From positions 130,321 to 194,320 of the forward strand of contig JBMORX010000009.1 in assembly GCA_049322615.1 (NCBI GenBank): a stretch of 64,000 nt of DNA. The letters run 5' to 3'. Origin of the DNA: Patescibacteria group bacterium. GTDB lineage: Bacteria > Patescibacteriota > Microgenomatia > CAYGWK01. The notes under the pieces were generated by a model. It saw nothing but the letters and a program-made list of their open reading frames with translations, was not told the DNA's origin and ran no database searches. This document shows positions 16,735-60,654 of this stretch, piece by piece; position 1 is the stretch's first letter; each line of letters begins with the position of its first letter. A program made the translations under genes and the position numbers.

Positions 16735-18168
16735 TTAAAGTGGTGGTCTTCTTTTGTGCCATTTGGTCTCTTGTTCATAAGCATAGCCTACTTGAAATAA
16801 AAGTTCTTCAGAAAACTGCGGTCCTAGGATTTGGATACCCACTGGCAGCGAGCCTGTCGAGCTGTCAATAAACCCGGCAGGGATGGCAAGCCCGGGAATT
16901 CCCGCTAAATTGGCGGTTACCGTAAAAATATCCGAAAGATACATCTGGAGCGGATCATCAACTTTTTCTCCCAATTTAAATGGCGGCGTTGGCGAAACCG
17001 GAGCCAGCAAAACATCAACTTTTTTAAACGCTTCATCAAAGTCTTTTTTAATTAAAGTCCGAACCTGCATTGCTTTCAGATAATAAGCTTCATAGTATCC
17101 AGCCGACAGGGCATAAGTCCCAAGCATGATTCTCCGTTTCGCCTCATCACCAAAACTTTCTCTTGAAAAACCATACCTTATTCCATCATACCTGGCTAAA
17201 TTTGAACTGGTTTCGCTTGGGGCGATTAAATAGTAGGTAGCAATAGCATATTTAGTGTAGGGTAAAGAAACCTTACTGATTTTAGCTCCTGACATTTCTA
17301 GGACTTTAATTGCCTTTTCTACCTTCTCTTTTACCTTCTCATCTACCCCTTCAACAAAATATTCCTTTGGGATACCAATTTTGACGTTCTTAATTCCTTT
17401 TTTAAGAAATTCTGTATATCTTGGGGGGGACAATGTGGAGGAGGTAGAGTCATGCTCGTCTTTGCCAGCGATTGTCTCCAAAACTAATGCGCAATCCTCC
17501 ACTGTTTTTCCCATGGGCCCAACCGTATCTAACGAAGAGGCGTAAGCAATCGCTCCGTACCGAGAAACTCTGCCATAAGTTACTTTTAATCCAACTACTG
17601 AACAAAAAGAAGCCGGAAATCTTATTGAACCACCGGTATCTTCCCCAATCTCAAAAAAACTCATATCCGCGGCAAGCGCCGCCGCCGATCCTCCCGAAGA
17701 TCCACCGGCCACTCTCCCCAAATCCCAGGGATTTTTCGTTGGCCCAAAATCAGAATTTTCCGTTGAACTTCCATGACCCCAAGCATCACAATTCGTTTTT
17801 CCAAGCAAAATCGCCCCAGCATTTAAAAGGCGCTCGTAAACTGTAGCGTTATATTGAGGAATATAATCCTTTAAGATATTGGAGGCCGCCGTAGTTCGAA
17901 TTCCTTTGGTGCAGTAAACATCTTTCATGGAAAAAGGAATCCCCAAAAGAAGAAGACTTTGGACTTTGGACTTTGGACTTTTAATTATTTTATCTGCTTT
18001 CTTTGCCTGTTCCAGTGCTTCTTTTTCACAGACAGTAATAAAGGCATTGATTTTGGGGTCAATCTTCTTTATCCGCTCAAGACAACTCTTCACCAGCTCA
18101 AGGGAAGAAAATTTTTTCTGCCGTAATCCTTCCTGGGCTTCTTTGATTGTCAGTTCGTTGAGATTCAT
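16735..18168 (-). CDS. gatA: Glu-tRNA(Gln) amidotransferase subunit A (amidase)
   Basis: Amidase signature GGSSGGSAAA; 477 aa. Confidence 0.95.
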   Translation of the reverse strand: MNLNELTIKEAQEGLRQKKFSSLELVKSCLERIKKIDPKINAFITVCEKEALEQAKKADKIIKSPKSKVQSLLLLGIPFSMKDVYCTKGIRTTAASNILKDYIPQYNATVYERLLNAGAILLGKTNCDAWGHGSSTENSDFGPTKNPWDLGRVAGGSSGGSAAALAADMSFFEIGEDTGGSIRFPASFCSVVGLKVTYGRVSRYGAIAYASSLDTVGPMGKTVEDCALVLETIAGKDEHDSTSSTLSPPRYTEFLKKGIKNVKIGIPKEYFVEGVDEKVKEKVEKAIKVLEMSGAKISKVSLPYTKYAIATYYLIAPSETSSNLARYDGIRYGFSRESFGDEAKRRIMLGTYALSAGYYEAYYLKAMQVRTLIKKDFDEAFKKVDVLLAPVSPTPPFKLGEKVDDPLQMYLSDIFTVTANLAGIPGLAIPAGFIDSSTGSLPVGIQILGPQFSEELLFQVGYAYEQETKWHKRRPPL

Positions 18169-22527: not shown

Positions 22528-24327
22528 TTCCAAAAGTTTCTTAAATTCACTATATCCTAGCGTATTTATTATATCACCTTTTTCTGCCCATCCACGCCTG
22601 GCGACCGCTACTCCATAACGCATCAGCTCCATCTGGTCAACAGCGTGAGCATCAGTGCAAATTACCATTTTCACCGCCGCTCTTGCCGCTTCACGGACAA
22701 GTGTATCTGGAAGATCAAGCCTATCAGGCCAAGCATTAATTTCCAACCAGATATTTCGTTTTTTACAAAAATCAAAAATCTCCTCCCAATCAAGTTCATA
22801 TCCTTCTCGCTCATTTAATTTTCTACCAGTTGGGTGACCCAAAATTTTTACCTTTGGATGTCTAAGGGCGGCTAAAACTCGTTTTGTCATCTCCTGGCGA
22901 CCCATTCTAAAGCTTGAATGAATTGAAACCATAACGAAATCTAAAAGATCTAATCCCTTTTCCGGAATCCCTAACGTTCCGTTGGGCTTTATGTCAACTT
23001 CAAGCCCATTAAGAGCCTGTATGAGCAATTTATTTCCTCTTTTTTCATGAGAGTAGTTTAATTTATCAATTCTTTCTTTTTTCCGCTTCAGTATGCTAAT
23101 TATTTGTTCAAGGCTATGTTTGCTAGTACTCGGATTATGTTCACAAAAACCAACATATTCATACCCAAGTTCTAATCCTTTATCCATTATCTCCTCCATT
23201 GAGCTTATCCCTTCATCATGGCTAGTTTCAATTGGAAAATCAGAATGGATATGGAGATCTCCTTTGATGTCCCTTAACTCTACTAATTTTGGCAGACCGC
23301 CTGGTTTACCCTGAGCGGAGCGAAGGGAAGCCTCAATTTCTCCAGTGTCCTCCCTTATCTCAGGCGGAATCCAATCCATCCCCAGGGCTTTATAGAACTC
23401 TTCTTCAGTAGCATAACTTCCCACTTCCCACTTTCCACTTCCCACTTTCTTTTTAATCCCATATTCAGACAAAGAAAGACCTTTCTTTAAAGCATACTCC
23501 CTAAGAGCAATATTATGTTGTTTTGAGCCAGTAAAATGCTGTAGAAGGGCTCCGTAAGAAGAAACTGGTTGAACCATAAGGTCAACCTGATAGCCAGATT
23601 TGAGGACTAAAGAGGCGGTCGCCGTTCCCGCCTCAAGAACTCTTTTTTTCTTTGGATAGGCAACAAAATGCGAAATAACCTCCTTTGGTTTATCAGTCGC
23701 CGCCGCAATATCAACATCACCAACAGTGGAAACCATTCTTCGAAGCGAACCTAAAGGGTCAGTCCGAATAACGTCAGGAGATTTCTTAAGCCAAAAAAGA
23801 ATATCATCTGCCACTTGAGCCGCATAAGGCAAAAGGATCCTGGTTGTCTTTCGCCGAAATTCTTCAATTCCCCGTAAAATATCCTTTTCTGATTCCTCTC
23901 CAAAACCCTCAATCACTCTTATTTCTCCACTTTTAGCCTTTTCTCCAAGTTCAGAAATCGCTGTTTTGGGATTTTTAAGTCCAAGCTCCTTGGAAAGTTT
24001 ATAAGCAGTCTTAGCCCCAACTCCCGGAATCGATAAAAGCTCAAACATGGCTGGAGGCAAACCAGACATCACTTCTTGAAAATGTTTTACTTTTCCAGTT
24101 CTGAAAAGTTCATCAAGATGGGAAGCAATTGCCGCTCCTATTCCCGCCAATTCTCCTAGCTTTCCGTCATCCCAAAGATCTTTAACTTCGCTTGAGGCGT
24201 GTTCAACTGAGGTTGCCGCCCGATCATAAGCCATAATCTTAAACCTATCTCCTCCTTTAATCTCATAAGCAGCTGCCATAGAGTGGAGGAGTTTAGCCAC
24301 TTCCTGATTGGTGAATTCTTTAGCCAT
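22525..24327 (-). CDS. polX: family X DNA polymerase with C-terminal PHP domain (PolX)
   Basis: HhH motifs (GIGAKTAYKL), Pol-beta-like core, PHP domain (DLHIHSDFP...H..). Contains an in-frame GGGAAGT-family repeat at 23417..23450. Confidence 0.85.
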   Translation of the reverse strand: MAKEFTNQEVAKLLHSMAAAYEIKGGDRFKIMAYDRAATSVEHASSEVKDLWDDGKLGELAGIGAAIASHLDELFRTGKVKHFQEVMSGLPPAMFELLSIPGVGAKTAYKLSKELGLKNPKTAISELGEKAKSGEIRVIEGFGEESEKDILRGIEEFRRKTTRILLPYAAQVADDILFWLKKSPDVIRTDPLGSLRRMVSTVGDVDIAAATDKPKEVISHFVAYPKKKRVLEAGTATASLVLKSGYQVDLMVQPVSSYGALLQHFTGSKQHNIALREYALKKGLSLSEYGIKKKVGSGKWEVGSYATEEEFYKALGMDWIPPEIREDTGEIEASLRSAQGKPGGLPKLVELRDIKGDLHIHSDFPIETSHDEGISSMEEIMDKGLELGYEYVGFCEHNPSTSKHSLEQIISILKRKKERIDKLNYSHEKRGNKLLIQALNGLEVDIKPNGTLGIPEKGLDLLDFVMVSIHSSFRMGRQEMTKRVLAALRHPKVKILGHPTGRKLNEREGYELDWEEIFDFCKKRNIWLEINAWPDRLDLPDTLVREAARAAVKMVICTDAHAVDQMELMRYGVAVARRGWAEKGDIINTLGYSEFKKLLE

Positions 24328-25439: not shown

Positions 25440-25442
25440 CAG

Positions 25443-26649: not shown

Positions 26650-27832
26650 CTTCAGTTGTTCCCAATAAAATCCACAGCCAACCCATAATCCAAGGATAAA
26701 ATAGGCTATTAACGAACCAGGAATGAACCAATAGAGCGATAACGCTTGCCAGAACCAGCAAATTCGCTGCCTTGGCGGAATTTACAAGAATTTTTCCCCA
26801 AAGCCAAAGATATGCCAAAAGACCAAAAATTCCCGTCGTCGCTAAAACAAATAAAAGGCTAGAATCCGCTCCCCCACCAGCATGCGAGGCTCGCCAATTG
26901 GCAAATTCTAAAAAACCATAATCTCGCTGGGCATAACGGTAGGCATTAAACCCGACTCCAAAAAGTAGATGCTCCTTGGCGATCACCAGCGACTGTCTCC
27001 AATTAATTAGGCGAAATTTAATTGTGCTTTCCCTCTCAAGTCTAACTCCCTCTCCACCAGGACGAGGTAAAAGAAAAACAGTGATAATGCCTGCCACTAG
27101 AACGGCAAGGAAAAACTTCGGTGCTTTCTTTACCCAGGCAATTGTCCCCATCGCCCCCAAATAAGCCAAGTAAGAAGCCCGAGAATAGGTCAAAGCCAAA
27201 GCCACATAAACAATCATTCCCACCAAAAAAATGATTCCTCTGTGCTTCATTTTTTCATCACTATGTAGCGATGAAACAATTAAAATGAGGGTTAAAACGA
27301 GAATTGCCCCAAGAAATCCCGGATCAAAAAAGGTTCCAATAACCCGGTAAAGATGCGGATCCCAACCATATTTTTCCAAAAATCTGGTATCGGGAACAAA
27401 AATATATTGAAGCAGACCTAAAACGGCTGTTGCTGTCCCAGTTATCATCAAACAACTTAAAATGCTTTGCACTTTGCACTTTGCACTTTGCACTAAATCG
27501 TAGATAACAAAATATAAACCGGCGTAAAAAATCCAACGAAGAAGATACAACCAAGAAACTAACCTTTCTCGTCCAGACAAAAGACTCAGCGAATTCAAGG
27601 CTAAGGAGATAAAGCAGAGAGAAAAAAACAAAAAAATTTGCTTTGCCAGTGGAGGAAGAATAAATTTATCTCTTTTTGAGAGTTTCCAAACTAGCCAACT
27701 TGAGACTAAAAACCCAACTAGAACATCGGCTAAATGAACATTTATTTCGGTTATTTCGAGGGTGAAGCGAGTCAGTTGACCAAGGGTAAAAACAACAAGG
27801 TAGCAATATAGCAAAATGATAATTAACTTCAT
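26639..27832 (-). CDS. O-antigen ligase/polymerase-like polytopic membrane protein (Wzy_C-like)
   Basis: 10+ TM helices with a large periplasmic loop. Contains a 7-mer x4 tandem repeat at 27466..27495. Confidence 0.55.
   Translation of the reverse strand: MKLIIILLYCYLVVFTLGQLTRFTLEITEINVHLADVLVGFLVSSWLVWKLSKRDKFILPPLAKQIFLFFSLCFISLALNSLSLLSGRERLVSWLYLLRWIFYAGLYFVIYDLVQSAKCKVQSILSCLMITGTATAVLGLLQYIFVPDTRFLEKYGWDPHLYRVIGTFFDPGFLGAILVLTLILIVSSLHSDEKMKHRGIIFLVGMIVYVALALTYSRASYLAYLGAMGTIAWVKKAPKFFLAVLVAGIITVFLLPRPGGEGVRLERESTIKFRLINWRQSLVIAKEHLLFGVGFNAYRYAQRDYGFLEFANWRASHAGGGADSSLLFVLATTGIFGLLAYLWLWGKILVNSAKAANLLVLASVIALLVHSWFVNSLFYPWIMGWLWILLGTTEAKA
27466..27495. repeat. heptanucleotide tandem repeat (CTTTGCA)x4 inside the coding sequence
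   Basis: GCTTTGCACTTTGCACTTTGCACTTTGCAC. The unit length is not a multiple of 3. Confidence 0.8.
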
Positions 27833-29538
27833 TGATATTTTTCCCCAAAAAGATAAAGTTTAACCTGAGTCTTTGGGTTTTGATAAAGAAGGAGTCTTGG
27901 ACCGAATTTCTCTGGTAACCTTTGATTGTCTCCAACCAAAATATGAGTAAAGTAAGTCCCAGGCAACGCGTAAGATTCATGAACATAAGGAAAATCAACA
28001 TAATAAAGATTGTGAATTCCGTAAATTAAAACTAAATCATCTTTTTTAATATTTCTTGAAAACCAACCATCAGCATCATAAAAATCACCAAAAGAAAAGT
28101 TGAGATGCTTTACCAGAAACTGAGTTTTATTCTCTTGGCCTAAAAGATAAGGCAAAAATTTTCGAGTAGCCAATCCTCGACTCCCAGTATTTAAAAGAGC
28201 AGAAAAAATGACAATTCCAAGGATTAGTTTTTCTATACCACTTTGCTTTGATTTTGCAAAGTGGTGTATACCTACCGAAGTTTTCAAATGAGAGTTTAAG
28301 ATGATCTTATGATTAAAATTACTCCCCAAAATCAAAGCTCCGTTAGGTATAACCCCTTGCAAGTTGAAAGCGAAGGGGTATAAAATCTTCTTTTGCTTAA
28401 GGTAAAAATCTAAAACAGCAAAGGTTAAAAGAGTTAAACCCGGAAGATATGGCAGGAGATAGCGATTGGAGGCAGCCGGAGCAAAGAAGGCTCCTAAAAG
28501 ACAATATAAAGCGGTGGTTTTAATTGACAATTTTTGCCTTAAGATGAAGATTAGGACCAAAGGTAAAAAAATAAGATAAACTGGAGAAATAATATCGTCT
28601 GGATGAATAGTGGCATTCCAAAGAAGAAGTGGCAACTTGCTAAGATTTTGAATAAGCCAGGGTGTAGTCCAGGATAGTCCTGGGTCGTGCGCGATCCAGG
28701 ATAATCCTGGGCCGGCTACCCTAAAAAGGACAAGCCACGGTGACGCTACCAATAATGCCAATAAGACGAATTTGACTAGTCTCTTAAATTTCTCATCCTT
28801 GCTTACCAGTAAGATCAAAATCCCAAAAGTCCCCAAAGTCCCAAAAGCTAAAATCTTAGTCGAGATTGCCAAGCCAGTTAAAATCCCCGCCTCCCAAAGA
28901 AAATTTTCTTTTTTTGTTTCAATCCATTTCAGAAATAAGTCTAAAGCCAAAATCTCAAAAAAGGTTCTGGTCAAATCTACATAAGCCGTAGTTGACTGCC
29001 AACCAACCATAAGCATGGTATAGAAAGTCAAAACCCCCAAAAGTGACAGTCTTAAACTCAAATAGCGCTTTAATAAATTAAACAAGGCGACTGCCGCCAA
29101 AATTCCAAAAGAAAAATGAATAAGCTTTGCTAAAATCTCGTTTGAAAAAAGAAGAGCGACCGTATAAAACATTTCCGTAAATCGTGGAAGATTTGCTGGC
29201 CAAAGAAGCCAACCGGGAATATAAAATATCTGATGATTTTGAACATAAAGTTTTGGAGGTGTTAGGTGGTACCACAAAGCATCAAAGGAAAGTTCTGGAG
29301 AAATCGCTCCTAAGAAATTGATTAGCACTTGAATTCCCAAAAGTCCCCAAAGACCCCAAAACCCCAAATTTACCCAGTTTAAATAATTAAAGTGCCAATT
29401 TTTTCTAATCCAGAAAAATCCAGCAACCAAAAATGGAAGAGAAACCAGAAATACTGGTAATCTATAAAGCCAACCGAGAAGTCCCAAAGCCAAGATTAAA
29501 TAAGAATAAATTCCCAAGACGATGGCTAGTCCTACCAT
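27829..29538 (-). CDS. GT39/PMT/ArnT-like polytopic glycosyltransferase-like membrane protein
   Basis: 569 aa with >12 TM helices. Carries an in-frame insertion of the palindromic CCAGGATAGTCCTGG doublet at 28664..28712 (encoding PGLSWIAHDPGLSWTT) and CCCCAAA-type low-complexity tracts. Confidence 0.5.
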   Translation of the reverse strand: MVGLAIVLGIYSYLILALGLLGWLYRLPVFLVSLPFLVAGFFWIRKNWHFNYLNWVNLGFWGLWGLLGIQVLINFLGAISPELSFDALWYHLTPPKLYVQNHQIFYIPGWLLWPANLPRFTEMFYTVALLFSNEILAKLIHFSFGILAAVALFNLLKRYLSLRLSLLGVLTFYTMLMVGWQSTTAYVDLTRTFFEILALDLFLKWIETKKENFLWEAGILTGLAISTKILAFGTLGTFGILILLVSKDEKFKRLVKFVLLALLVASPWLVLFRVAGPGLSWIAHDPGLSWTTPWLIQNLSKLPLLLWNATIHPDDIISPVYLIFLPLVLIFILRQKLSIKTTALYCLLGAFFAPAASNRYLLPYLPGLTLLTFAVLDFYLKQKKILYPFAFNLQGVIPNGALILGSNFNHKIILNSHLKTSVGIHHFAKSKQSGIEKLILGIVIFSALLNTGSRGLATRKFLPYLLGQENKTQFLVKHLNFSFGDFYDADGWFSRNIKKDDLVLIYGIHNLYYVDFPYVHESYALPGTYFTHILVGDNQRLPEKFGPRLLLYQNPKTQVKLYLFGEKYQ

Positions 29539-29647
29539 ACTCTTCCCCTTTTTCCTAACATAAGAATATACTTAATTAGCACAAATCCAACCCAAGTTAA
29601 AAAAAACAAAATTTTTAATTTTTCATTTTTAATTTTTAATTTTGTTA

Positions 29648-30418
29648 TCATTTCCACCCCGCCTCTTTTCTCCAAATGAGATAAAGTTTGCTTCTCACTA
29701 AAAACGAGTGAAAACTCATCAATAAAGCGACGATAAATCCCGGCATTCCGTCTAAAAATCCTAAGCGAAAAAAATAATTCTGAATAAATTTAGCCGGAGG
29801 CTTAAACCAATCAAAAAATGTCGTCCGTTTCCCCTCATCATAAAAAGCCCAGGCGTTAAGAGTTGAGAGAAAATTAATACTTCCTAAAAATTCAGTCAAG
29901 GTTTGATGAGGGTAATGGCTCAGAGGATTTTCCATAGTCGCTGTTTCGCCCCTAATTTCCCAAACCTCATCCACTGTCCTTCTCCACTCCCCTGCCCCTT
30001 TTTTCCCAAGCCTCAAAAGTCTAACACCAGCCGTTTCCCCATGTTTTAGTGTTCTTCCCCAGATTTTATCTTCTCGTCTTAGGTAAAACCCAGAATATTT
30101 ACTCTTTGATGTTTGCTTTTTAATTTCAGCCCAAAGTGCCGCCGAGACTCGTTCATCGGCATCAACAAACAGAACCCATTCTCCGCTGGCTTTGTTTAAA
30201 CCAAAATTCCTCTGGCTAGAAAAATCGCAATTTAGGTGTCTTTTGAAAATTTTTATATTACTTCGTTCTTCTTTCTCCACCATTTCCACTATTTTCAAGG
30301 TGCTATCCTCTGAATAATCATCTACAATCACTATTTCATCGGCCCATTTCAAGGTCTTCAAACACTCCCCAATATTCTTCTCCTCGTTTTTAGTAAGAAT
30401 AACTGCTGTGAGCGCCAT
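29648..30418 (-). CDS. family 2 glycosyltransferase
   Basis: AVILTKNEEKNIGECLKTLKWADEIVIVDDYSEDST is the GT2 N-terminal DxD-containing core. Confidence 0.85.
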   Translation of the reverse strand: MALTAVILTKNEEKNIGECLKTLKWADEIVIVDDYSEDSTLKIVEMVEKEERSNIKIFKRHLNCDFSSQRNFGLNKASGEWVLFVDADERVSAALWAEIKKQTSKSKYSGFYLRREDKIWGRTLKHGETAGVRLLRLGKKGAGEWRRTVDEVWEIRGETATMENPLSHYPHQTLTEFLGSINFLSTLNAWAFYDEGKRTTFFDWFKPPAKFIQNYFFRLGFLDGMPGFIVALLMSFHSFLVRSKLYLIWRKEAGWK

Positions 30419-37899: not shown

Positions 37900-38967
37900 T
37901 TACTTTATTTCAATCGTCCCCTCCGGCTTTCTCAAGCGGGCAATGCTTTCAACAATTCCCAAACTTATCATTGTTGCCAAAATTGAGGACCCGCCATAAG
38001 AGACAAGAGGCAAAGTTATCCCCGTTATTGGCAGCATCCCCATGTTCATACCAATATTGACGAAAATTTGAAAAGACAAAAGAGAAAAAATACCAAATAG
38101 GATGAGGGTTCCAAAACTTGAAGATGAGCTTTGAGCAATCTTTAAGATCCGGCAAAGTATTAAAAAATAGCAAAAAACAAGGATAACTGCCCCTAAAAAA
38201 CCAAGTTCTTCTGATAAAGAGGCAAAGATAAAATCCGTGTGGCGCTCTGGTAAAAAGGCAAGATGACTTTGGGTTCCTCTTCCCAATCCCCGACCAAAAA
38301 GCTCCCCCGAGCCAACAGTAATAACCGACTGGATGAGGTGGTAGCCTGAACCTAAAGGATCAAGGTAGGGATTTAAGAAACTTAGAATCCGCGCTTTTTG
38401 ATAACTTTTCAATAAAAACCAACCAATAGGAGAAAAAACACCCAAAACTAAAAGTCCTGCAACAACATAAAGACCAGAAATGTTACTTGCAAGTAAAATC
38501 CCCAAAAAAGAGGCTAAAATGACCAGAGTACTCCCCAGATCCGGTTGTTTAAAAATAAAAATTAAAGGCAAGGATAAAAGAAGAAAGGAGGTGATAAGTC
38601 TAAAGACTGATAGTTTTTCTTCTTTGGCAAAAAAATAGGCAAAAAAGCAAACCAAAAAAGGCTTAACTATCTCTGATGGCTGGATAGTAAAATTTCCAAC
38701 TTGTATCCAACGAATTGAACCGCGGGTCACCTCACCAAACAAAAAGGTTAAGATTAAAAAGACAAAAGTTGCCCCATATAAAAGCCAGGACAAATTTTCA
38801 AAAACCCTAAAATCTATCTTGGCAAAAAGGAAAAAGAAGAAAAATCCAATTATAAGAAAAATGAGTTGTTGGACAAAGAGAGATGGCACCAAACTCCAAG
38901 TCATCGCCAGTCCCAAGATGGCAATAATTATAATTGCCAGAAGAATTGGAAAATCAAAGCCTCTCAA
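37900..38967 (-). CDS. rodA: SEDS-family peptidoglycan glycosyltransferase (RodA/FtsW/SpoVE family; rodA-like by context)
   Basis: 10-TM SEDS pattern, 355 aa, located outside the dcw block. Confidence 0.7.
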   Translation of the reverse strand: MRGFDFPILLAIIIIAILGLAMTWSLVPSLFVQQLIFLIIGFFFFFLFAKIDFRVFENLSWLLYGATFVFLILTFLFGEVTRGSIRWIQVGNFTIQPSEIVKPFLVCFFAYFFAKEEKLSVFRLITSFLLLSLPLIFIFKQPDLGSTLVILASFLGILLASNISGLYVVAGLLVLGVFSPIGWFLLKSYQKARILSFLNPYLDPLGSGYHLIQSVITVGSGELFGRGLGRGTQSHLAFLPERHTDFIFASLSEELGFLGAVILVFCYFLILCRILKIAQSSSSSFGTLILFGIFSLLSFQIFVNIGMNMGMLPITGITLPLVSYGGSSILATMISLGIVESIARLRKPEGTIEIK

Positions 38968-41836
38968 TTTCTAATCTTTCACCTTTCTTTATACTTTTGG
39001 CGAGCGTTTCGCTTTTAATATAGTCTTCAAATTCAGCTGGCCAGGAAGGAGCAGTCACCTCCACTTTTTCATCCAAAGCACAATTTTCTTTTTTACGTAA
39101 CTCCTGAATCTGGCGCACCAATTCTCTCGCTTCTCCCTCTGATCTAAGTTCTGAGGTGATGGTAGTATCTAGCTCTATCCCTAGTTCACCTTTTCCTTTA
39201 ACCCATTCTATTTCTTTAACATTTAACTCATCCATTATCAACTGTTCAAGTTCCCTTTTTTCATTTTTATTTGTAGTTTTTAATTTTTCATTTTTAATTT
39301 TTAATTTCTTTAGCGGCTGTCTCACTTTTACCTTCGCCGATTTCCTTGCCGCATGACCCAATTCACAAATCTTCCGAACCTGCGCCATATGTTTTATAAG
39401 CTGGGCTTGCCCTTCCGAAGCTTTAGCGAAGGAGGGCCAGTTTTCCAAATGAACACTTCCTGTTTTTAAGTTTTGATAAATTTCTTCAGCTAAAAATGGT
39501 GTAAATGGAGCAAGAAGTTTTGAGAGAGTCACCAGAGCCTCATATAAAGTAGCGTAACAGGCGTTTTTGTCTTCACCATCTTCAACCGCGGGTCCAACAC
39601 GGTCTCTGGAGCGCCGAACATACCAGGTCGATAAATCGTTAACAAAGTCTTCAATCGCGTGAGAGGCGGTAAAAGCATCGTAATTCTCAAGCGAATCAGT
39701 TACCACCTGAATTAACTCATTTAATCTCGACAAAATCCACCTATCCAAAACATTTTCAGATTTTTCATTGTCGTTTTTAATTTTTAATTTTTCATTTTTA
39801 ATTTTATCAATATTGGCATACGTCATAAAAAAGTTATAAATATTCCAAAGCATCAGATGAAAACGGCGCCTCGTTTCATCAGCCACATGGTAACCAAAAT
39901 TAAGATTTATTTCCGGATTTTGGGTGACATACATCCAGCGCATCACGTCAACCCCAATTTTGCCTGCTCCCTCGTTAAATTCAATGGCATTCCCCAAGGA
40001 TTTATGCATCGGTCGGCCATCTTCCGCCAAAAGAGTGGCAAAACCCAAAACCGTTTTAAAAGGAGGTTTGTCTTCCAAAATTGTTGCCATCGCCAAAAGT
40101 GAATAAAACCAATTTTTAAATTGCCCAGGAAATGATTCGGTAATAAAATCAGCCGGAAACCAATCTTTGGGCATGGTTGAAAAAGAAACAATCCCGGCGT
40201 CAAGCCAAGGATTACCCACATCTGGAATTCGCGAAATAGTTTCCCCGCAAGAACATTTAATCTTTACCTCATCAATCCAAGGACGATGGGGAGAATGTTC
40301 CGCAAATCCCTCATATCCTTCAACTGCCCGCTGCTTTAATTCCTCTTTCCCTCCTAAAATAGTAAATTTTCCACATTTTTGACATTCCCAAATCGGCAAA
40401 GCCAAACCCCAATATCTTTTTTTGGAAATCAGCCAGTCTTGCATATTGGAAAGCCAATCAAGTTCCCGCTCAAGTCCCCATTTTGGAAGCCAGCAAATTT
40501 TTTTCGCCACCTCAATCATTCGGTTCCGATAATTCTTGGCTCCCGGATGAACTTTTGCATCCATAGCAATATACCACTCATCAACTACCCGCCAGACGAG
40601 TTCGGTTTTGCAGCGCCAACAAACAGGATAACGATGAGTATAGTCTTCTAGTTTAAAGAAGAATTTGCCTTCTTCTTTGTTTTTAAGTTTTTCAAAAATT
40701 AAATCAGGTTTTTCTTTGGCATTTGCCCGCGATAAGTCATCTAAACCATCGAGGTAGGCTCCCTCCTCGTCAATTAAAGCAACTACCGGTAAGTTTTCTC
40801 TTTTGCCAATTTGAAAATCCTCTTGCCCGGCGCCGGGAGCGAGATGAACAATTCCCGTCCCTTCAGCGGCGGTGACCAGGTCTTTATCCAAGACTACGGT
40901 ATGGAAAGTTTTGGGGTTTTCTTTCCTGGCAACTTCAACCACTGGTAAATCATCAAATGGACCAAGGTATTGAAAACCAGAAAGTTTTGTTCCGGGAAAT
41001 TCTCCAACCTTCTCCCACTCTTTGTCTTTTAAGATTTTTCCCGCCAAATCCTTCAAAAAAATCAGAATTTCTCCGGTTTTTTTGTTTTTAAATTTGGCAT
41101 AAAGAAAATCTGGATTAACGGTCAAAGCCACATTTCCAGGAATTGTCCAGGGGGTAGTTGTCCAAACTAGAAGAAATTCATTCTTCCTATTTTGAATAGG
41201 ATACTTTACAAAAACTGATTTGTGAGTAATTTCTTGATATTCTTCAGTTAAAATCTCATGTTGAGAAATGGCTGTCCCACAACGAGGACACCAGGGAACC
41301 GAATCTTTTCCTTTATAAAGATTTCCATCAGTCCAGCATTTTTTCAAGAAATACCAAATCATATAGTTATTCTCATCAGAGAGGGTGTAATAAGAATTGT
41401 CCCAATCCATAAAATAACCAAGTCTTTTTGATTGTTCAGTTTGGACTTTGGCAAAATAAAGAGTTCTTTCTTTACATTTATTGACAAATTTTTCAATTCC
41501 GTATTTTTCGATATCTTTTTTAGACTTAAAACCTAATTCTTTCTCAACCTCAACCTCGACCCAAAGCCCTTGATTATCGAAACCGTTCTGAAATCTTTGT
41601 CTGAAGCCTCGCATGTTAAAAAATCGCTGCCATAAATCCTTGTAGGTTCTTCCCCAGGCATGATGAACCCCCATCGGGTTATTAGCCGTAATCGGACCAT
41701 CAAGAAAAGAAAAGTTCTTCTTTGAAGAATCGTTTTTGTGAAGATATTTCTTAACAATCTCTGCTTTATACCACCATTCCAAAATCCGTCGCTCCATTTC
41801 CGGAAAATCTTCTTTTGGATTTACGGTTTTAAACAT
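38954..41836 (-). CDS. ileS: isoleucyl-tRNA synthetase
   Basis: 960 aa, class I aaRS with an editing domain. Carries two in-frame AT-rich repeat insertions (KLKIKNEKLKTTNKNEK; KIKNEKLKIKNDNEK). Confidence 0.95.
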   Translation of the reverse strand: MFKTVNPKEDFPEMERRILEWWYKAEIVKKYLHKNDSSKKNFSFLDGPITANNPMGVHHAWGRTYKDLWQRFFNMRGFRQRFQNGFDNQGLWVEVEVEKELGFKSKKDIEKYGIEKFVNKCKERTLYFAKVQTEQSKRLGYFMDWDNSYYTLSDENNYMIWYFLKKCWTDGNLYKGKDSVPWCPRCGTAISQHEILTEEYQEITHKSVFVKYPIQNRKNEFLLVWTTTPWTIPGNVALTVNPDFLYAKFKNKKTGEILIFLKDLAGKILKDKEWEKVGEFPGTKLSGFQYLGPFDDLPVVEVARKENPKTFHTVVLDKDLVTAAEGTGIVHLAPGAGQEDFQIGKRENLPVVALIDEEGAYLDGLDDLSRANAKEKPDLIFEKLKNKEEGKFFFKLEDYTHRYPVCWRCKTELVWRVVDEWYIAMDAKVHPGAKNYRNRMIEVAKKICWLPKWGLERELDWLSNMQDWLISKKRYWGLALPIWECQKCGKFTILGGKEELKQRAVEGYEGFAEHSPHRPWIDEVKIKCSCGETISRIPDVGNPWLDAGIVSFSTMPKDWFPADFITESFPGQFKNWFYSLLAMATILEDKPPFKTVLGFATLLAEDGRPMHKSLGNAIEFNEGAGKIGVDVMRWMYVTQNPEINLNFGYHVADETRRRFHLMLWNIYNFFMTYANIDKIKNEKLKIKNDNEKSENVLDRWILSRLNELIQVVTDSLENYDAFTASHAIEDFVNDLSTWYVRRSRDRVGPAVEDGEDKNACYATLYEALVTLSKLLAPFTPFLAEEIYQNLKTGSVHLENWPSFAKASEGQAQLIKHMAQVRKICELGHAARKSAKVKVRQPLKKLKIKNEKLKTTNKNEKRELEQLIMDELNVKEIEWVKGKGELGIELDTTITSELRSEGEARELVRQIQELRKKENCALDEKVEVTAPSWPAEFEDYIKSETLAKSIKKGERLEIERL

Positions 41837-46154: not shown

Positions 46155-47223
46155 TTAATTCTTTGACTATTTTTAGGCTACTGTCTGGTTTAATAAGTTT
46201 TTTTGCTTCTGGGGCATTTCTCTGATACTTTTCAAGATTGGCCATCATTTCTGAAATCTTATTTAATAAACTTGGTCCAGTCAATTCTTTCTGAGGCAGG
46301 ATTTCGGCAATTCCCGCCTTAACCAACATTTGGGCATTTTTGGTTTGTTCATCTTGATAGCTCCAGGGAATAGGAATAAAAAGCGCTGGTTTTCCTAAGG
46401 CGGCAATCTCGCAGACGATATTTGCCCCAGCCCGAGAGACAATTAAATCAGCTTTGTTTAAAACCCAACCGATATCCTCTAGACCAACATACTTAGTCAG
46501 AATATAGTTTTCTCTTAAATCCAATTTTAAATTCTCATAATCCAACTCACCACACTGATGTATGATAGTATATTTTCCCAGGAGTTTTGGTAAAATCTCT
46601 AAAACTGCCCTATTGATTACTTTCGCGCCTTGGTTTCCACCGGTGATGTAGATAAGTGGGAAGGGCGAAGGGCGAAGTGGGAAGTGGGAAGGTTTCCTAA
46701 TCTTAAAAATCTCCTGGCGGATTGGGTTACCGGTTAAAATCACTTTTTCTTTTGGAAAAAATTTTAAACTTTCCGGAAAAGAGACGGCAATTTTTGAGGC
46801 AAAAAAGGAATTTATCTTTGAGGCTAGACCAAAAACGGTTGTTTGTTCATGGGTTAAAATAGGAATCCTCAAAAGCCAACCAGCTAAAACAACCGGAACA
46901 GAAACATAACCACCAAAAGAACAAATAACCAAAGGTCTTATCTTTAAAAGCCAGTAAAGGCTTTGAAAAAAACCCAGGGGAACTCGCAACAAGGAAGGTA
47001 TCGTAAAACGGGTAAATTTACGCTGCAGTCTCCCAGCCGCAATTGGAATAAATTTAATCCCAAGGAGAGGAATAATTTTAGACTCAGCCGAGGGAACTCT
47101 CTTCCCCTCCATTGCATATTTTCTGCCAAAATAGTAAATCTGCCATCGATCTTCTTTTTTTAACTCCTCAATTACCGCTTGGGCCGGCGTCAAATGTCCC
47201 CCGCAAATCACAATTCTTTTCAT
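46126..47223 (-). CDS. murG: UDP-GlcNAc:lipid I transferase MurG
   Basis: GT28 fold with the ITGGNQGAK (GGSQGA) motif. Contains an in-frame GGGAAGT-family repeat insertion (PSHFPLRPSPFPL). Confidence 0.9.
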   Translation of the reverse strand: MKRIVICGGHLTPAQAVIEELKKEDRWQIYYFGRKYAMEGKRVPSAESKIIPLLGIKFIPIAAGRLQRKFTRFTIPSLLRVPLGFFQSLYWLLKIRPLVICSFGGYVSVPVVLAGWLLRIPILTHEQTTVFGLASKINSFFASKIAVSFPESLKFFPKEKVILTGNPIRQEIFKIRKPSHFPLRPSPFPLIYITGGNQGAKVINRAVLEILPKLLGKYTIIHQCGELDYENLKLDLRENYILTKYVGLEDIGWVLNKADLIVSRAGANIVCEIAALGKPALFIPIPWSYQDEQTKNAQMLVKAGIAEILPQKELTGPSLLNKISEMMANLEKYQRNAPEAKKLIKPDSSLKIVKELNDLSKPKKP

Positions 47224-55026: not shown

Positions 55027-56339
55027 TCTCTTTGGATTTTGGCGCCCAGGGTGCGTAGTCTTTCATCAAGATTTTCGTATCCCCTAAAAATATGCTCAAC
55101 TCCCAAAAGCTCTGTCTTCCCTTTGGCAACCAAAGCCGCCAAAATTAAGGTTGCCCCGGCCCTAATATCGCCAATATTAAGCTGACTTGCCCAAAGATTG
55201 GTCGGTCCCAAAATTTTTACCGCGTGGAAATATTCCTGTTTATTATCCTCCCAGTTGAAATTGTAATAATCCTGGGGGCTATCAACTTCGGGATTAAAAA
55301 GTTCAATTTTTGCCCCCATTTTAATTAAATCCGGAACATAGCCAAAACGATTCTCAAAAATAGTCTCATGGACGGTTGAGGTTCCTTGGGCCTGGGTCAT
55401 TAAAACTGTCCAAAGAGCCTGCCAATCGGTCATAAAACCTGGATAAGGAGCGGTAATTACTTGACTTGGGCGGAGCGGATGTTTATAGAAAAATCTGATT
55501 CCCTCCCGACTAACCTCGTACCCTCCTTTTATTTCTTTAATTTTATCCAAAAAGGCGGTCAAAACTTTGGGATTGGCTTTTCGGACAAAAACATCACCTT
55601 TTGTAATTAAGGCAACACAAGCAAAAGTCACGGCTTCGTTACGATCAGGCATGACCTGATGACTTGTTCCTTTAAGTTTTTTAACTCCCTGAATTAAAAT
55701 CCGGCGATTGGGTAATCTTTTGATTTTTGCCCCCATTTGATTAAGAAAGGCAATTAGATCATCAACCTCTGGCTCAAGGGCTGCATTCTCAAGCAAAGTT
55801 GCTCCTTCAGCCAAAACCGAGGCAATAATCATCACATCGGTCCCTCCGTGAGTATTTTTAGGAAAACGGTAAGTCGCTCCCTTAAGTTTGCTGGCTTCAA
55901 TCAAACAATAATCCCCAAAATACTTAAAGTTGGCTCCTAATGCTTTAAAACCTTCAAGGTGCCAGTCAATTGATCGGCGACCGATTTTACAACCTCCTGG
56001 AACAGGGATAATTGCCTTACCGAAACGCGCAAGCAAGGGACCAACAAAGTAGGTTGAAGCCCGGGAAAGCCGACCATGTTTTTCGGATAATTCGAATTTA
56101 TTTAAATTCGCGCCTCTCACTTCAAGGTGATGATTTTTCCTAAAAGTAACCTTACCGCCAAGTTCTTCTATTATTTTTGCCGTGGAGACAACATCACCAA
56201 TCTTTGAGAAATTTCCAATTTTACTTTCTTCTTCCGAAAGCAAACCCGCAATCATTAATTTGAAGCCAGAGTTTTTGGCTCCGGCTAAAGTGACCTCACC
56301 GCAGAGACGATTGCCTCCTTCAATAATGAATTTTTGCAT
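55023..56339 (-). CDS. murA: UDP-GlcNAc 1-carboxyvinyltransferase
   Basis: EPSP-synthase fold, MQKFIIEGGNRLCGEVTLAGAKNS N-terminus, 438 aa. Confidence 0.95.
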   Translation of the reverse strand: MQKFIIEGGNRLCGEVTLAGAKNSGFKLMIAGLLSEEESKIGNFSKIGDVVSTAKIIEELGGKVTFRKNHHLEVRGANLNKFELSEKHGRLSRASTYFVGPLLARFGKAIIPVPGGCKIGRRSIDWHLEGFKALGANFKYFGDYCLIEASKLKGATYRFPKNTHGGTDVMIIASVLAEGATLLENAALEPEVDDLIAFLNQMGAKIKRLPNRRILIQGVKKLKGTSHQVMPDRNEAVTFACVALITKGDVFVRKANPKVLTAFLDKIKEIKGGYEVSREGIRFFYKHPLRPSQVITAPYPGFMTDWQALWTVLMTQAQGTSTVHETIFENRFGYVPDLIKMGAKIELFNPEVDSPQDYYNFNWEDNKQEYFHAVKILGPTNLWASQLNIGDIRAGATLILAALVAKGKTELLGVEHIFRGYENLDERLRTLGAKIQRE

Positions 56340-57235
56340 TAAAGTTCTCCGATAATTTTAATTTCTTTTTCAAGTCTAACAGCAAATTTTTCTTCAACCC
56401 TTTTTTGGCACAAACGTATTAATTCTAGCACATCCCTGCCCTTTGCCAAACCCAAATTAACAATAAAATTAGCATGTTTGGGGGAAACTTGAGCATCGCC
56501 AATTCGATAGCCCTTCAGTCCGACCTGCTCGATCAACTTACCGGCACTTTCACCATCGGGATTTTTAAAAACAGAACCGGCTGAGGGTTCTTTAGGTTGG
56601 TTTTTTCTTATCTTTAAATATTTATCGATTCTTCTAGCAACACTTTGGGGATTATTCTGGATTAATTTCAAGGTTACCCCCAAAACGATCTCTTTCTCCA
56701 GCAAAAATCGGCTCTGTCTATAACCAAACTGGCATTCTCTTTTTGAAATTATTTCTTTTTCTCCGTCTTCCTGCAAAATTTCAACTTCTTCAACCAAATC
56801 TCCAATCCACTTGTCTTTAATCCCAGCATTACCAGCAATCGCTCCGCCCACTGTCCCCGGAATACCGGCGCAGAACTCTAGTCCGGAAAGCCCCCCTTTG
56901 GCGGTCTCCCCCACCAACCAAGGAAGACTCATCCCAGCTTCAGCCTTGACCCTTCCATTTTTCATTCCCAATTTTTCATTTTTAATTTTTATTACCACCC
57001 CCCGTATTCCTTTATCTGAAACCAAAATATTTGATCCCCCGCCTAAAATAAAATATGGAATCTTTAATTTCCTGGCAAGTTTTACCGCCGCCACTATCTC
57101 TTCCTTCGTCTTTACCTCATAAAAGATATCGGCTGGCCCGCCAATTTTAAAAGTGGTGTGAAGACGCATTGGCTCATTGAGTTTTACTCTTTTTCCTCCT
57201 AAACTTTCCAAGAATTCCTGATAGCCTTTTTTCAT
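56339..57235 (-). CDS. murB: UDP-N-acetylenolpyruvoylglucosamine reductase
   Basis: FAD-binding PCMH domain (TFKIGGPADIFYEV). Contains a KIKNEKL-family repeat insertion. Confidence 0.9.
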   Translation of the reverse strand: MKKGYQEFLESLGGKRVKLNEPMRLHTTFKIGGPADIFYEVKTKEEIVAAVKLARKLKIPYFILGGGSNILVSDKGIRGVVIKIKNEKLGMKNGRVKAEAGMSLPWLVGETAKGGLSGLEFCAGIPGTVGGAIAGNAGIKDKWIGDLVEEVEILQEDGEKEIISKRECQFGYRQSRFLLEKEIVLGVTLKLIQNNPQSVARRIDKYLKIRKNQPKEPSAGSVFKNPDGESAGKLIEQVGLKGYRIGDAQVSPKHANFIVNLGLAKGRDVLELIRLCQKRVEEKFAVRLEKEIKIIGEL

Positions 57236-59458: not shown

Positions 59459-60654
59459 TTTAACCTTTCCTTAATCGCCTCTTTCGAAATTTCCTGGTCT
59501 GACCAGGGGATTTCCTGTCCGCCGAGATTTAAAGTTTTCTGGTGACCAACACCAGTAATCAAAACAGTATCTTTACTTTTAGCCATATTAATCGCTAAGA
59601 TGATTGCGCAAGAGCGGTCAAAAATCTTCCAATAGGTTTGACCTAAAATTTTCCCTCCCTTTTTCACTCCCACTTCAATTTCGTTAATGATTTTTTTAAG
59701 GTCTTCATGATAAGTATCCTCATGCGTTAGAATAATTTTATCACTAAGCTTGGCGGAAATCTCTCCCATCATCGGTCGTTTGGTTTTGTCTCGATCACCG
59801 GTACAGCCAAACACATGAATTATTTCTCCTTTCGTCTGATTTCGCACCGTCTTAAGAACCTCTTTAAAGGCAGCCGGGGTGTGAGCAAAATCAATAAAGA
59901 CTTGAAAATCCTGTCCCTCGCTGATCTTTTCCAGTCTCCCTGGTAATCCAGAAAAACCTTCGACAGCAATCCTTATAATTTCCTTCTTTATCCCCAAACC
60001 TTGGGCTACTCCGATGGCTGCCAGACAGTTATAAAGATTATATTCGCCAAGAAGCTTTCCTTTAAAAGGAAAAGTTTTCGGTGTCAAGTCAGCCTCATTC
60101 TTAACTCCATAAGTTATTATTTTTGCTTTTTCACTCTTAATTTTTGATTTTAGGTATTCGTATGACTCATCGTCGCAATTTAAAACCGCTAATTCTACTT
60201 TTCGGAAAAGTTTTGCCTTGGCTTTCAAATAATCTTCAAAAGTTTTGTGATAATCTAAATGCTCGTGGGTAATATTGGTGATTACTCCAACCTTAAAATT
60301 ACAGCCCAGGAGCCGGTGTTGGTCAAAACCGTGAGAAGTTGCTTCAAGAACAACATGAGTAAACCCACGGTTGACAATTTGCTGAAGAAGTTTTTGCAGC
60401 AAAAAAGGGCTGGGGGTAGTCACATGGAAACCAGTTTTAATTTCTTTTTCTCCAAACCATGCTCCAAGAGTGGAAATCATCGCCACTTTAAATCCTGCTT
60501 TTTTAAGAATTTCTCCAACTAAATGGACCGTGGTTGTTTTTCCATCGGTACCAGTAACCCCAATCACGGTCAAGTGAGAAGCGGGAAAACGATAGAAGAT
60601 GACAGCCAGGAATGCTTGAATAAAGTGACCAAGGTTCTTCAGTTTTCGAACCAT
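59455..60654 (-). CDS. murE: Mur ligase MurE-like lacking the N-terminal domain, with a non-canonical residue block at the DNPR specificity position
   Basis: VIGVTGTDGKTTT, LEATSHGF, HLDYHKTFEDY and FGCTGDRDKTKRPMMG are MurE hallmarks. The DNPR position reads HEDTYHED. Confidence 0.65.
   Translation of the reverse strand: MVRKLKNLGHFIQAFLAVIFYRFPASHLTVIGVTGTDGKTTTVHLVGEILKKAGFKVAMISTLGAWFGEKEIKTGFHVTTPSPFLLQKLLQQIVNRGFTHVVLEATSHGFDQHRLLGCNFKVGVITNITHEHLDYHKTFEDYLKAKAKLFRKVELAVLNCDDESYEYLKSKIKSEKAKIITYGVKNEADLTPKTFPFKGKLLGEYNLYNCLAAIGVAQGLGIKKEIIRIAVEGFSGLPGRLEKISEGQDFQVFIDFAHTPAAFKEVLKTVRNQTKGEIIHVFGCTGDRDKTKRPMMGEISAKLSDKIILTHEDTYHEDLKKIINEIEVGVKKGGKILGQTYWKIFDRSCAIILAINMAKSKDTVLITGVGHQKTLNLGGQEIPWSDQEISKEAIKERLK

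Follow-up and report, generated by a model that had tools for sequence, protein, structure and literature searches.

The AT-rich motif that recurs in this DNA is a heptanucleotide tandem array, (AAAAATT/AAAAATG)n, for which TRF reports a period of 7 at every copy, and all four copies probably belong to one family of slippage-prone microsatellites that has been filtered by selection. Within the window (the whole stretch of 64,000 nucleotides that was analysed), the minus-strand 24-mer AAATTAAAAATGAAAAATTAAAAA has exact copies at 29612-29635, 39277-39300 and 39781-39804 and a copy with three mismatches at 56965-56988, in murB; an identical 31-mer is common to 29612-29642 and 39277-39307, the latter being the second ileS site described below. 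With shifted registers included, the 24-mer has seven matches, compared with 0.00 expected from 100 dinucleotide shuffles. The four places named in the initial annotation are therefore confirmed, as three exact 24-mers and one degenerate copy where none is expected by chance, and the peptides it gave are correct, all copies lying in open frames. The arrays span 24-51 nt and are unstructured, with a folding dG of -0.1 kcal/mol (z +0.67) and no palindrome. Since the unit of 7 is not a multiple of 3, an array is read in all three phases and produces a 7-residue peptide repeat. A pure (AAAAATT)n array has a TAA in every frame, and the T-to-G change present in every third unit sits exactly on the in-frame TAA and removes the stop.

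Two arrays lie inside ileS (960 aa; 38954..41836, minus strand). At site 1 (39761..39809, minus strand; TRF and translation) the AAAAATT/AAAAATG array encodes IDKIKNEKLKIKNDNEK, residues 676-692, which the AF2 model places in a coil between helices 649-676 and 696-717, with pLDDT<50 at 687-691; this segment is 4-5 residues longer than in 1ILE and 8C8W. At site 2 (39257..39307, minus strand), approximately seven AAAAATT/AAAAATG units with a degenerate 3' end (TRF period 7, 7.4 copies) encode KLKIKNEKLKTTNKNEK, residues 844-860, modelled as a strand (842-848) followed by a coil (849-856) and 4 residues longer than in 8C8W. The earlier view that these copies lie in loops fits the linker coil of site 1, which is modelled with low confidence; site 2 is a strand plus loop, and the arrays add only 4-5 residues to segments that are present in all IleRS. 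The 3' sequences of the two arrays match at 85% over 52 nt, a stretch whose complexity is too low to count towards common descent. The single array in murB (298 aa; 56339..57235, minus strand) is degenerate, reads AATAAAA ATTAAAA ATGAAAA ATTGGGA ATGAAAA ATGG (56956..56991, minus strand; TRF and motif search) and is translated as IKIKNEKLGMKNG, residues 82-94. Here the protein is 0 to 2 residues shorter than the solved MurBs, and the segment is predicted with confidence to fold as a beta-hairpin (E80-84 / E89-92, block pLDDT 94), so that the notion of a surface-loop insertion fails for MurB. Tolerance of the arrays in essential genes is nevertheless borne out, the frames being open in both ileS and murB.

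The remaining copy, at 29605..29645, had been taken as intergenic and is in fact coding. Its array of 4.9 AAAAATT/G units (29610..29643, minus strand; TRF) lies inside a small conserved gene (29532..29651, minus strand; identified as an ORF with homologues) of 39 aa from its ATG, with a single TM-like segment. The ORF reads MITKLKIKNEKLKILFF..., the array supplying the N-terminal KLKIKNEKLKI; the gene overlaps both its neighbours, its ATG sharing bases with the upstream stop and its own stop with the downstream start (ATGA and ATGGTAG). Homologues of 34-39 aa are found in other genomes (P0320, P0321 and P0322), the first of which has the same array and the second NVKCQMSNVKC, made from a different heptamer unit at the same position.

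This family is one of several. In total the window holds 8 to 12 heptamer arrays of at least six unit families, all in ORFs with the frame kept, and those that follow, defined by TRF and translation unless stated otherwise, are again on the minus strand. In pyrG, the unit AATTACT (4304..4340) yields a 13-residue peptide and a net gain of 10 aa. gatB carries two arrays, one of TCAAATT/G (15182..15213) that gives an 11-residue peptide with no net insertion (-3 aa), and one of the GGGAAGT family (14480..14514; family D5, TRF period 14) that is 91% identical to the GGGAAGT array of polX (23416..23447; KVGSGKWEVGS). The reverse complement of this last family occurs in murG (46660..46692; PSHFPLRPSPF). 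Perfect arrays are present in gatA (AAAGTCC x3.9, 17955..17981; KSPKSKVQSL, +4 aa) and in a Wzy_C membrane protein (AAAGTGC x4.3, 27465..27494; LVQSAKCKVQS), and a weak, decayed AAAAAT-type array in a Mur ligase (60119..60151; TRF score 31, family D1/D2) is translated as LKSKIKSEKAKI. Eight period-7 arrays in the window reach a TRF score of at least 40, whereas 20 Markov shuffles gave 0; within the window ORFs the count is 8 versus 0 (maximum 0) in 30 codon shuffles, and no other period between 4 and 12 yields more than two arrays. This periodicity scan used 20 comparisons; with 28, too many for arrays of only 27-35 nt, it gave none, and a stricter census of perfect runs retained only two arrays. 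Two other classes of repeat were considered and rejected: a DNA uptake sequence needs one uniform high-copy motif, while at least six units occur in these 64 kb, and a DGR target would come with a template repeat and an A-specific pattern, neither of which is seen. An Rfam search of the whole window at the gathering threshold returned tRNAs only.

The same positions carry arrays in other genomes. Across approximately 120 IleRS and 120 MurB orthologues, the IleRS and MurB sites described above are occupied by heptamer arrays whose units differ. The commonest length of IleRS site 2 is 20 aa (68/120 orthologues), a second peak lying at 27 aa (+7), and its heptads are lineage-specific, including ELRIANCELRI, KLQITNYKLQI, CQISNVKFQISN and others, the arrays being confirmed in the DNA. 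Units from elsewhere in the window also appear there, namely the TCAAATT/G of gatB in one relative (L201) and AAAGTGC, as 'AKCKVQSAKL', in P0011, P0017, P0042 and P0053. The MurB site is of equal length in 88/120 orthologues, with 7-aa duplications, and 21 of the 22 exact period-7 matches in MurB fall at the array site; one related murB (L206) has the AAAAATT/G array of the window, exact 24-mer included. Such heptamer arrays are common in Patescibacteria genomes, with a density of 5.0 per 100 kb in Patescibacteria-like IleRS loci versus 0.17 in other phyla. Since about 88% of the genome is coding, most arrays lie in genes, and 29 of 40 arrays in Patescibacteria loci are within ORFs of at least 100 aa. 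Assembly artefact was dismissed as a source of these features, which recur in independent assemblies, the k-mer of the k141 contigs being longer than the arrays. Literature searches brought up nothing relevant to heptanucleotide or tandem repeats of CPR/Patescibacteria.

These comparisons bear on whether KIKNEKL is a functional or ancestral peptide under selection at the protein level, or lysine-rich low complexity arising from AT bias, either of which we regard as highly improbable. The peptide is indeed found at the same position in MurB of P0212, P0268, P0270 and P0305 and at the IleRS sites of P0009 and P0040, formally the outcome that the initial annotation had named as refuting it, and the MurB segment is a predicted folded hairpin. 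What is shared is however the site and not an ancestral sequence, as most orthologues have unrelated heptads there. Codon choice is identical in all copies, although codon-usage arithmetic gives a probability of only about 0.02 per copy for one KIKNEKLK peptide to be written with exactly these codons; the identity therefore resides at the DNA level, and the period is 7 nt and neither 3 nor 21. With regard to low complexity, the shuffled sequences contained no copies and the window, at approximately 40% GC, is not extremely AT-rich. In this respect the initial annotation, which described a repeat of DNA and not a conserved protein sequence, is upheld.

Natural alleles that differ by one unit occur in relatives at both IleRS sites; for the copies of the window itself no polymorphism was seen, a single contig carrying P0001. 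Addition of one ACAATTT unit to the L202 sequence restores a 954-aa IleRS identical to P0129, and deletion of one AAAGTCA unit reproduces the truncated P0133. Alleles lacking one unit are the assembled consensus, P0005 on three contigs and P0131 on another, and a frameshift at site 2 gives an 853-aa ORF and an overlapping 99-aa DUF5915 ORF. Between two alleles with 93.8% identical DNA (L204 and L208), a sharply bordered 66-nt AAAATGC array stands at site 1 in place of the native 60-nt block, while at site 3 an octamer array is one unit longer through clustered substitutions, with the length unchanged. At site 2 a recombination tract reaching past the array is suspected. Arrays that vary by single units and differ between alleles of about 94% identity bear out the suggestion that the motif is recombinogenic or unstable. 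Could it also be a contingency switch, in which gain or loss of one unit reversibly frameshifts ileS and other hosts and leads to phase-variable growth arrest or split enzymes? A non-triplet unit inside ORFs, the consensus minus-one-unit alleles of both IleRS sites and the paired ORFs produced at site 2 are all features of such a system. The hosts (ileS, murB, gatA/B, pyrG, murG and polX) are, however, housekeeping or essential genes, not genes for surface structures or for restriction-modification; interruption or degeneracy, which suppresses slippage, affects many arrays; no evidence of selection for switching was seen; and the frameshift alleles may be plain deleterious or tolerated variants. 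We therefore consider switching very unlikely.

We favour slippage combined with selection. A process acting on DNA would create, homogenise and resize arrays of about 3.5-7 units; replication slippage and short-range template switching between units would be its components, possibly with occasional copying between arrays. While the periodicity, its excess over chance, the in-frame reading, the repair of the stop, the hot spots, the turnover of units and the one-unit alleles are observed, we infer that slippage or template switching generates the arrays and that selection filters them. An AAATTAA array would be translated as K-L-K-I-K-N-stop, and selection would retain arrays whose in-frame TAA has been mended to GAA (the origin of 'KIKNEKL'), changes that are length-neutral or proceed in 21-nt steps, and positions that can accommodate a 7-periodic amphipathic peptide, namely linkers and beta-hairpins. 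The 'TT' of the unit would place hydrophobic residues at i and i+2, which may suit beta-strands. The outcome is that the same structural positions are hot spots across Microgenomates orthologues while the unit sequence turns over fast. Several points count against slippage. In essential genes a slip of one unit kills the cell or breaks the frame, so that birth and growth of arrays within genes would need multi-unit or length-neutral events. In addition, 24-31 identical nucleotides, irregular G included, are present in three copies.

Identity of this kind would also be expected if a tiny mobile element, some 32-33 nt in size (AATTAAAAATTAAAAATGAAAAATTAAAAATT), were block-copied to new sites. 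Such an element might be comparable to the small dispersed repeats of cyanobacteria, to MITEs or to RPEs, and a RAYT-like Y1 transposase encoded at 42501-43181 might mobilise it. Several features point in this direction: the identical 24-31-mers at three loci, the replacement with sharp borders at site 1 of L204 versus L208, and the presence of the exact 24-mer, with abrupt borders, in at least 120 metagenome contigs of 22-61% GC. Array lengths are concentrated between 24 and 35 nt, 33 nt being the mode for this family, and seldom exceed five units; some 76% of copies have a sharp left border. Neither the clustering nor the border is obviously predicted by a simple slippage equilibrium, and for the AT-only arrays with abrupt borders in contigs of 55-61% GC an origin by in situ drift is unlikely. 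Identical units are about 5 times commoner within a contig (7/62 pairs) than between contigs (24/1114), an excess that hints at copying between sites. In L201 the RAYT-like gene is found in synteny, and L207 has another. One contig (L086) is Bacteroidota-like (SusC/SusD), and the ORFs chosen in two GC-rich contigs (L111 and L084) had no Pfam matches. A single element spreading horizontally across phyla was rejected as the source of these matches, the exact 24-mer being expected for any AAAAAT[T/G] array.

Against mobility, the arrays have neither a hairpin nor a terminal inverted repeat, as their folding energy indicates, and a search around the copies found no target-site duplication or conserved non-periodic flank. 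AAAAAT[T/G] arrays have three variable positions, which gives a 1-in-8 chance of identity across genomes. Net insertion is absent in MurB and GatB, alleles differing in unit number are typical SSR behaviour, and the same sites are reused by many different units. The candidate mobiliser matches Y1_Tnp at 28 bits and REP_Tyr_transpos at 46 bits; its RAYT match of 46-54 bits does not reach the curated cutoff of 80. Known RAYTs target hairpin REPs and not unstructured arrays, and a search for REP hairpins beside the gene found only short, unconvincing palindromes. Altogether, we judge a mobile element unlikely, and slippage under selection remains the preferred explanation. A broader proposition, that the arrays at fixed hot spots represent an active system of Patescibacteria, either frameshift switches or a machinery that writes arrays of about 33 nt, is speculative and in our opinion decidedly improbable. 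Were the arrays switches, ileS and other genes would be split or silenced reversibly, with bet-hedging or dormancy in episymbionts as the result. An array-writing activity, Y1/RAYT-like or polymerase-based, would explain the preference for 4-5 units in Xanthomonas, Nostoc and Bacteroidota without recourse to G-quadruplexes.

The initial annotation likened the motif to Rickettsia palindromic elements, which are about 100-150 bp long, palindromic and net insertions. Both are DNA-level repeats that lie in-frame within essential protein genes and are translated into extra peptide; the arrays, however, are unstructured tandem heptamers of 24-51 nt, without palindrome or fold, and are often length-neutral, with net changes of +4-5 aa in IleRS, +10 in PyrG, +4 in GatA, 0 to -2 in MurB and -3 in GatB. 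With the contingency SSRs of Haemophilus, Neisseria and Campylobacter they share a non-triplet unit inside an ORF and, in relatives, single-unit frameshift alleles; unlike phase-variable contingency loci they are hosted by essential enzymes, are frequently interrupted and gave no evidence that switching is adaptive. Essential genes would be expected to lose microsatellites whose unit is not a multiple of three. Instead, at particular positions of IleRS, of MurB and of a small membrane protein, such arrays are the norm throughout a whole candidate-phylum group, and they may allow the proteins of reduced genomes to vary rapidly without loss of frame. For annotation this is a practical caution: where Patescibacteria MAGs show housekeeping genes that are split or truncated, array slippage may be the reason.

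Bacteria are known to have an excess of heptameric SSRs, for which polymerase slippage has been put forward as an explanation (PMC4692102). That article describes GGGAATC and GGGGA(T/C)T repeats in Xanthomonas and Nostoc and the cyanobacterial STRR of Calothrix/Nostoc (PMC4692102, citing Mrazek 2007 and Mazel 1990), with the Xanthomonas/Nostoc heptamers characterised there as mostly intergenic and under-represented in coding regions. The arrays reported here resemble these repeats in their tandem 7-nt units, many dispersed short arrays, several families per genome, preference for about 4-5 units, and variation in length and sequence between close relatives. They differ from the Xanthomonas/Nostoc heptamers in lying nearly all in-frame in housekeeping ORFs and in having A/T-rich units that cannot form G-quadruplexes, and from known heptameric SSRs in their Patescibacteria host and their conserved hot spots in orthologous proteins. 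Heptamer repeats in bacteria are thus already known, and it is their in-frame position in housekeeping genes, at the same hot spots in relatives, that is unusual. Because the A/T-rich arrays are similar in size to the 4-unit preference of G-rich heptamers, this preference need not come from G-quadruplex formation. The arrays therefore offer a natural system in which to ask why 7-nt repeats are favoured in bacteria, which has been unexplained since 2007. In 2008, Elhai and colleagues reportedly described small dispersed repeats that lie within the heptameric repeats of Nostoc, and the heptamer arrays of relatives similarly hold GC-rich hairpin inserts of 21-30 nt. Unlike such nested repeats and REP/REPIN, the KIKNEKL arrays are separate from the hairpin inserts, which form a second class, and the window arrays carry none of them. 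As in REP/REPIN-RAYT systems (PMC3116915), a RAYT-like gene is present, and a REP-like paired hairpin occurs at two loci of the window.

Exact copies of the 24-mer AAATTAAAAATGAAAAATTAAAAA occur on the minus strand at 29612-29635, 39277-39300 and 39781-39804, and a fourth copy with 3 mismatches lies at 56965-56988. With shifted registers, the 24-mer gave 7 matches, compared with none in 100 dinucleotide-preserving shuffles; the G+C content of the window is ~40%, so this is not extremely AT-rich DNA. The peptides quoted in the initial annotation proved correct when the translations were checked. With codons chosen at the frequencies of the window, a KIKNEKLK peptide would be encoded in exactly this way with a probability of ~0.02 per copy, indicating that the copies are identical at the DNA level; together with the different heptads at orthologous sites, this confirms a repeat family of DNA.

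Tandem Repeats Finder (TRF) assigns period 7 to each copy, with AAAAATT or AAAAATG as the unit. At least five further period-7 units are present in the window: AATTACT in pyrG (4304), TCAAATT/G in gatB (15182), a perfect AAAGTCC array in gatA (17955), GGGAAGT in polX (23416), gatB (14480) and, inverted, murG (46660), and a perfect AAAGTGC array in a Wzy_C membrane protein gene (27465). At a TRF score of at least 40, the window holds 8 period-7 arrays as against 0 in 20 Markov shuffles. Shuffling codons within each ORF gave the same contrast (8 versus a maximum of 0 in 30 shuffles), with at most 2 arrays for any of the remaining periods from 4 to 12. All heptamer arrays of the window sit in long ORFs with the frame intact. 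Heptamers dominate, and arrays of 8 and 9 nt exist too: period-9 arrays CAAAAGTCC and CCCCAAAGA, with 90% mutual similarity, lie in a PMT_2-like ORF (28816-28847 and 29336-29368), and an octamer array, AAAAGTTC, is found in ileS of the relatives L204 and L208.

Since 7 and 3 are coprime, a heptamer array is read in all three phases and yields a 7-residue peptide repeat. Pure (AAAAATT)n carries TAA in every frame, and AAATTAA x3 translates as K-L-K-I-K-N-stop. Every copy has the G of its AAAAATG unit exactly on the in-frame TAA, turning AAT TAA into AAT GAA and thus producing the 'KIKNEKL' peptide. Every base of the unit occupies the second codon position once and only once, so two neighbouring Ts put hydrophobic residues at i and i+2; going by the genetic code, this would give a beta-strand pattern. 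The copy at 29612, previously described as intergenic, turned out to be coding: it lies within a 39-aa ORF (ATG at 29651, reading MITKLKIKNEKLKILFFLTWVGFVLIKYILMLGKRGRVW) that shares bases with the upstream stop at its start (ATGA) and with the downstream start at its stop. An exhaustive HMMER search retrieved three homologues of 34-39 aa, of which P0320 has an identical KLKIKNEKLKI, P0321 has NVKCQMSNVKC, from a different heptamer unit, at the equivalent position, and P0322 has a short KKLKIL.

The window belongs to a MAG of a Microgenomates-like member of the Patescibacteria (P0001, 100% identical, lies on a 201,931-bp contig), and its array sites were compared with those of 120 orthologues each of IleRS and MurB. 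IleRS site 2 (39257-39307, minus strand) has a modal length of 20 aa in 68/120 and a further peak at 27 aa (+7), and most sequences contain an internal 7-aa duplication whose residues vary by lineage (for example ELRIANCELRI, KLQITNYKLQI, CQISNVKFQISN, AKCKVQSAKL, FTIYNLQFTI and KLKVKSEKLKV). IleRS site 1 (39761-39809, minus strand) behaves similarly. Heptamer arrays at the IleRS sites were verified in the DNA of the relatives' loci L001, L032, L050, L073, L201, L202 and L204. The MurB site (56956-56991, minus strand) is of equal length in 88/120 orthologues, which carry IQNTEYKIQN, VKSQKSKVKS, ISNIKYQISN, IANCELRIAN and similar heptads; IKNEKLKIKN itself occurs there in P0212, P0268, P0270 and P0305, and murB of the relative L206 also has an AAAAATT/G array, of 8.3 units with the exact 24-mer included. 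When proteins were scanned for exact 4-residue matches at a given distance, 21 of the 22 distance-7 matches in MurB fell at the array site, and those in IleRS included 13 at around residue 840 and 8 at around 670-680 (bins 670 and 680); other distances were rare, except for 16 distance-6 matches in IleRS. The different heptads at equivalent positions indicate that the site is shared and the sequence is not. Units turn up at unrelated sites as well: IleRS site 2 carries the gatB unit of the window in L201, the closest relative, and the window's Wzy_C unit in P0011.

Measured against solved structures, IleRS site 1 is 4-5 residues longer, in a linker also present in the Thermus thermophilus and Priestia enzymes, and site 2 is 4 residues longer; the GatA and PyrG sites add 4 and 10 residues, while the MurB site is 1-2 residues and the GatB site 3 residues shorter. 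In MurB as modelled by AlphaFold2 (mean pLDDT 90.7), IKIKNEKLGMKNG forms a hairpin of strand 80-84, turn and strand 89-92 (pLDDT 94 for the block). For IleRS (mean pLDDT 74), site 1 is modelled as coil linking helices 649-676 and 696-717 (pLDDT <50 at 687-691), and site 2 as strand 842-848 followed by coil. On these lengths and models, the proposal of loop insertions holds at most for ileS site 1.

Relatives show how unstable the arrays are. In one 90% cluster, IleRS is 954 aa long in P0129 (33 contigs) and 853 aa long in P0005 and P0131 (at least 4 contigs), and is split into 699+261 aa in P0133 and P0132. If exactly one ACAATTT unit is added at site 2 of L202, the ORF again runs to 954 aa and is identical to P0129; taking one AAAGTCA unit out of site 1 yields the P0133 tail. 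In L202 and L203, loss of one heptamer unit leaves an 853-aa ORF with an overlapping 99-aa DUF5915 ORF; in another allele the break, into 699 + 261 aa, is at the other array. Array slippage can thus lie behind truncated or split housekeeping genes in these MAGs. The ileS genes of L204 and L208 are 93.8% identical and differ at three sites: at site 1 a 66-nt AAAATGC array with sharp borders stands in place of a native 60-nt block, VSYSDLNDWKQKQPLA; at site 2 an ACATGTT array is present in one allele and the divergence reaches past the site, so recombination is possible there; at site 3 three clustered substitutions give one allele an additional octamer unit, with length unchanged. The window and the syntenic L201 (80% IleRS identity) have no array in common, and several of their indels coincide with arrays. 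Relatives' arrays also hold nested GC-rich hairpin inserts, with lengths of 21-30 nt that are divisible by three, such as TCTTGCGAAGCAAGATCCTGCTCCGCAGGA (two perfect hairpins) and CCTGCCCTGCCGGCAGGCGGGC, translated for example as PASPSEAGRA, SCEARSCSAG and PALPAGG; they occur at IleRS site 1 of L201, at the MurB site of L205 and L207, and, at the protein level, in P0153, P0156, P0064, P0077, P0044, P0029, P0225, P0253 and P0303.

Patescibacteria-like IleRS-anchored loci contain 5.0 period-7 arrays per 100 kb (40 in 800 kb; 19/48 loci), 29/40 of them inside ORFs of at least 100 aa, compared with 0.17 per 100 kb (1 array in 597 kb) in Chloroflexota, Bathyarchaeota and other loci. Metagenome contigs with the exact 24-mer number at least 120 and span 22-61% GC; in them it is nearly always in the KIKNEKLK frame of long ORFs, although with just three variable T/G positions its identity across genomes is alone no proof of transfer. 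In some contigs of 49-61% GC, one Bacteroidota-like, arrays lie between genes, often as inverted pairs 5-100 nt apart (L084 975-1081; L111 5204-5357; L116 1323-1457 and 2313-2401; L086 4075-4146), which could form long AU-rich hairpins.

Array lengths concentrate at 24-35 nt, with a mode of 33 nt in the KIKNEKL family, and more than 5 units are rare; the left border is sharp. A mini-element copied as a block is possible and would fit this discrete size, the recurrence of identical copies at several loci, the identity of units in 7/62 within-contig pairs versus 24/1114 between contigs, and a RAYT-like gene in the window; however, the arrays lack structure, target duplication and a conserved flank, are often length-neutral and vary by single units. 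The evidence best supports a system of heptanucleotide microsatellites that are prone to slippage and pass a filter of selection, and for it we infer slippage or template switching as the generator. Selection would maintain in-frame reading, with stops repaired and changes length-neutral or of 21 nt, and would place arrays at structurally permissive linkers and hairpins. The heptameric SSRs of which these arrays are a variant occur in Xanthomonas and cyanobacteria and are described as intergenic and under-represented in coding regions (PMC4692102), whereas the arrays of the window all lie in-frame inside ORFs. A literature search of incomplete coverage turned up no earlier account of heptamer arrays lying in-frame in Patescibacteria.

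The RAYT-like gene encodes a 226-aa Y1 (IS200-like) transposase (42501-43181, plus strand) between ftsZ and ileS; its best NCBIfam match, 'REP-associated tyrosine transposase', scores 46-54 bits, under the cutoff of 80. Counterparts are found in L201 (8599-9240, syntenic) and L207 (304-978), whereas L202 and L204 lack the gene. Two loci, 2690-2737 and 28667-28713 (versus 0.06 expected), carry a REP-like paired hairpin made of two CCAGGATAGTCCTGG copies spaced by ~13 nt, one locus being intergenic and the other in-frame in a 569-aa PMT_2-like membrane protein, reading GPGLSWIAHDPGLSW. This in-frame palindrome suits the analogy with Rickettsia palindromic elements better than the heptamer arrays, which are without structure and for which it had been proposed. 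A 31-nt partly palindromic sequence, TCTTAAGAAAGCAGGGATTTCTCCCTCAAGA, has four copies (9284, 12567, 43201 and 61205; 71-100% identity). Two tRNA-Thr(CGT) genes (25369-25440 and 25720-25791) flank and overlap a 140-aa GIY-YIG endonuclease ORF (25389-25811), an arrangement that resembles insertion of a homing endonuclease with duplication of the tRNA. A 64-nt sequence at 1056-1119 and 22403-22466 (91% identical), with no Rfam match at the gathering threshold, directly precedes two genes of the minus strand that are unrelated to each other, an 84-aa ORF (start 1055) and a 201-aa ORF (21811-22416), and may be a shared leader or promoter. Finally, a 152-aa ORF downstream of murG carries a perfect 24-nt tandem duplication (46023-46075, 2.2 copies, LIAKQQAL repeats), and the 16-aa segment is missing in the L201 orthologue.
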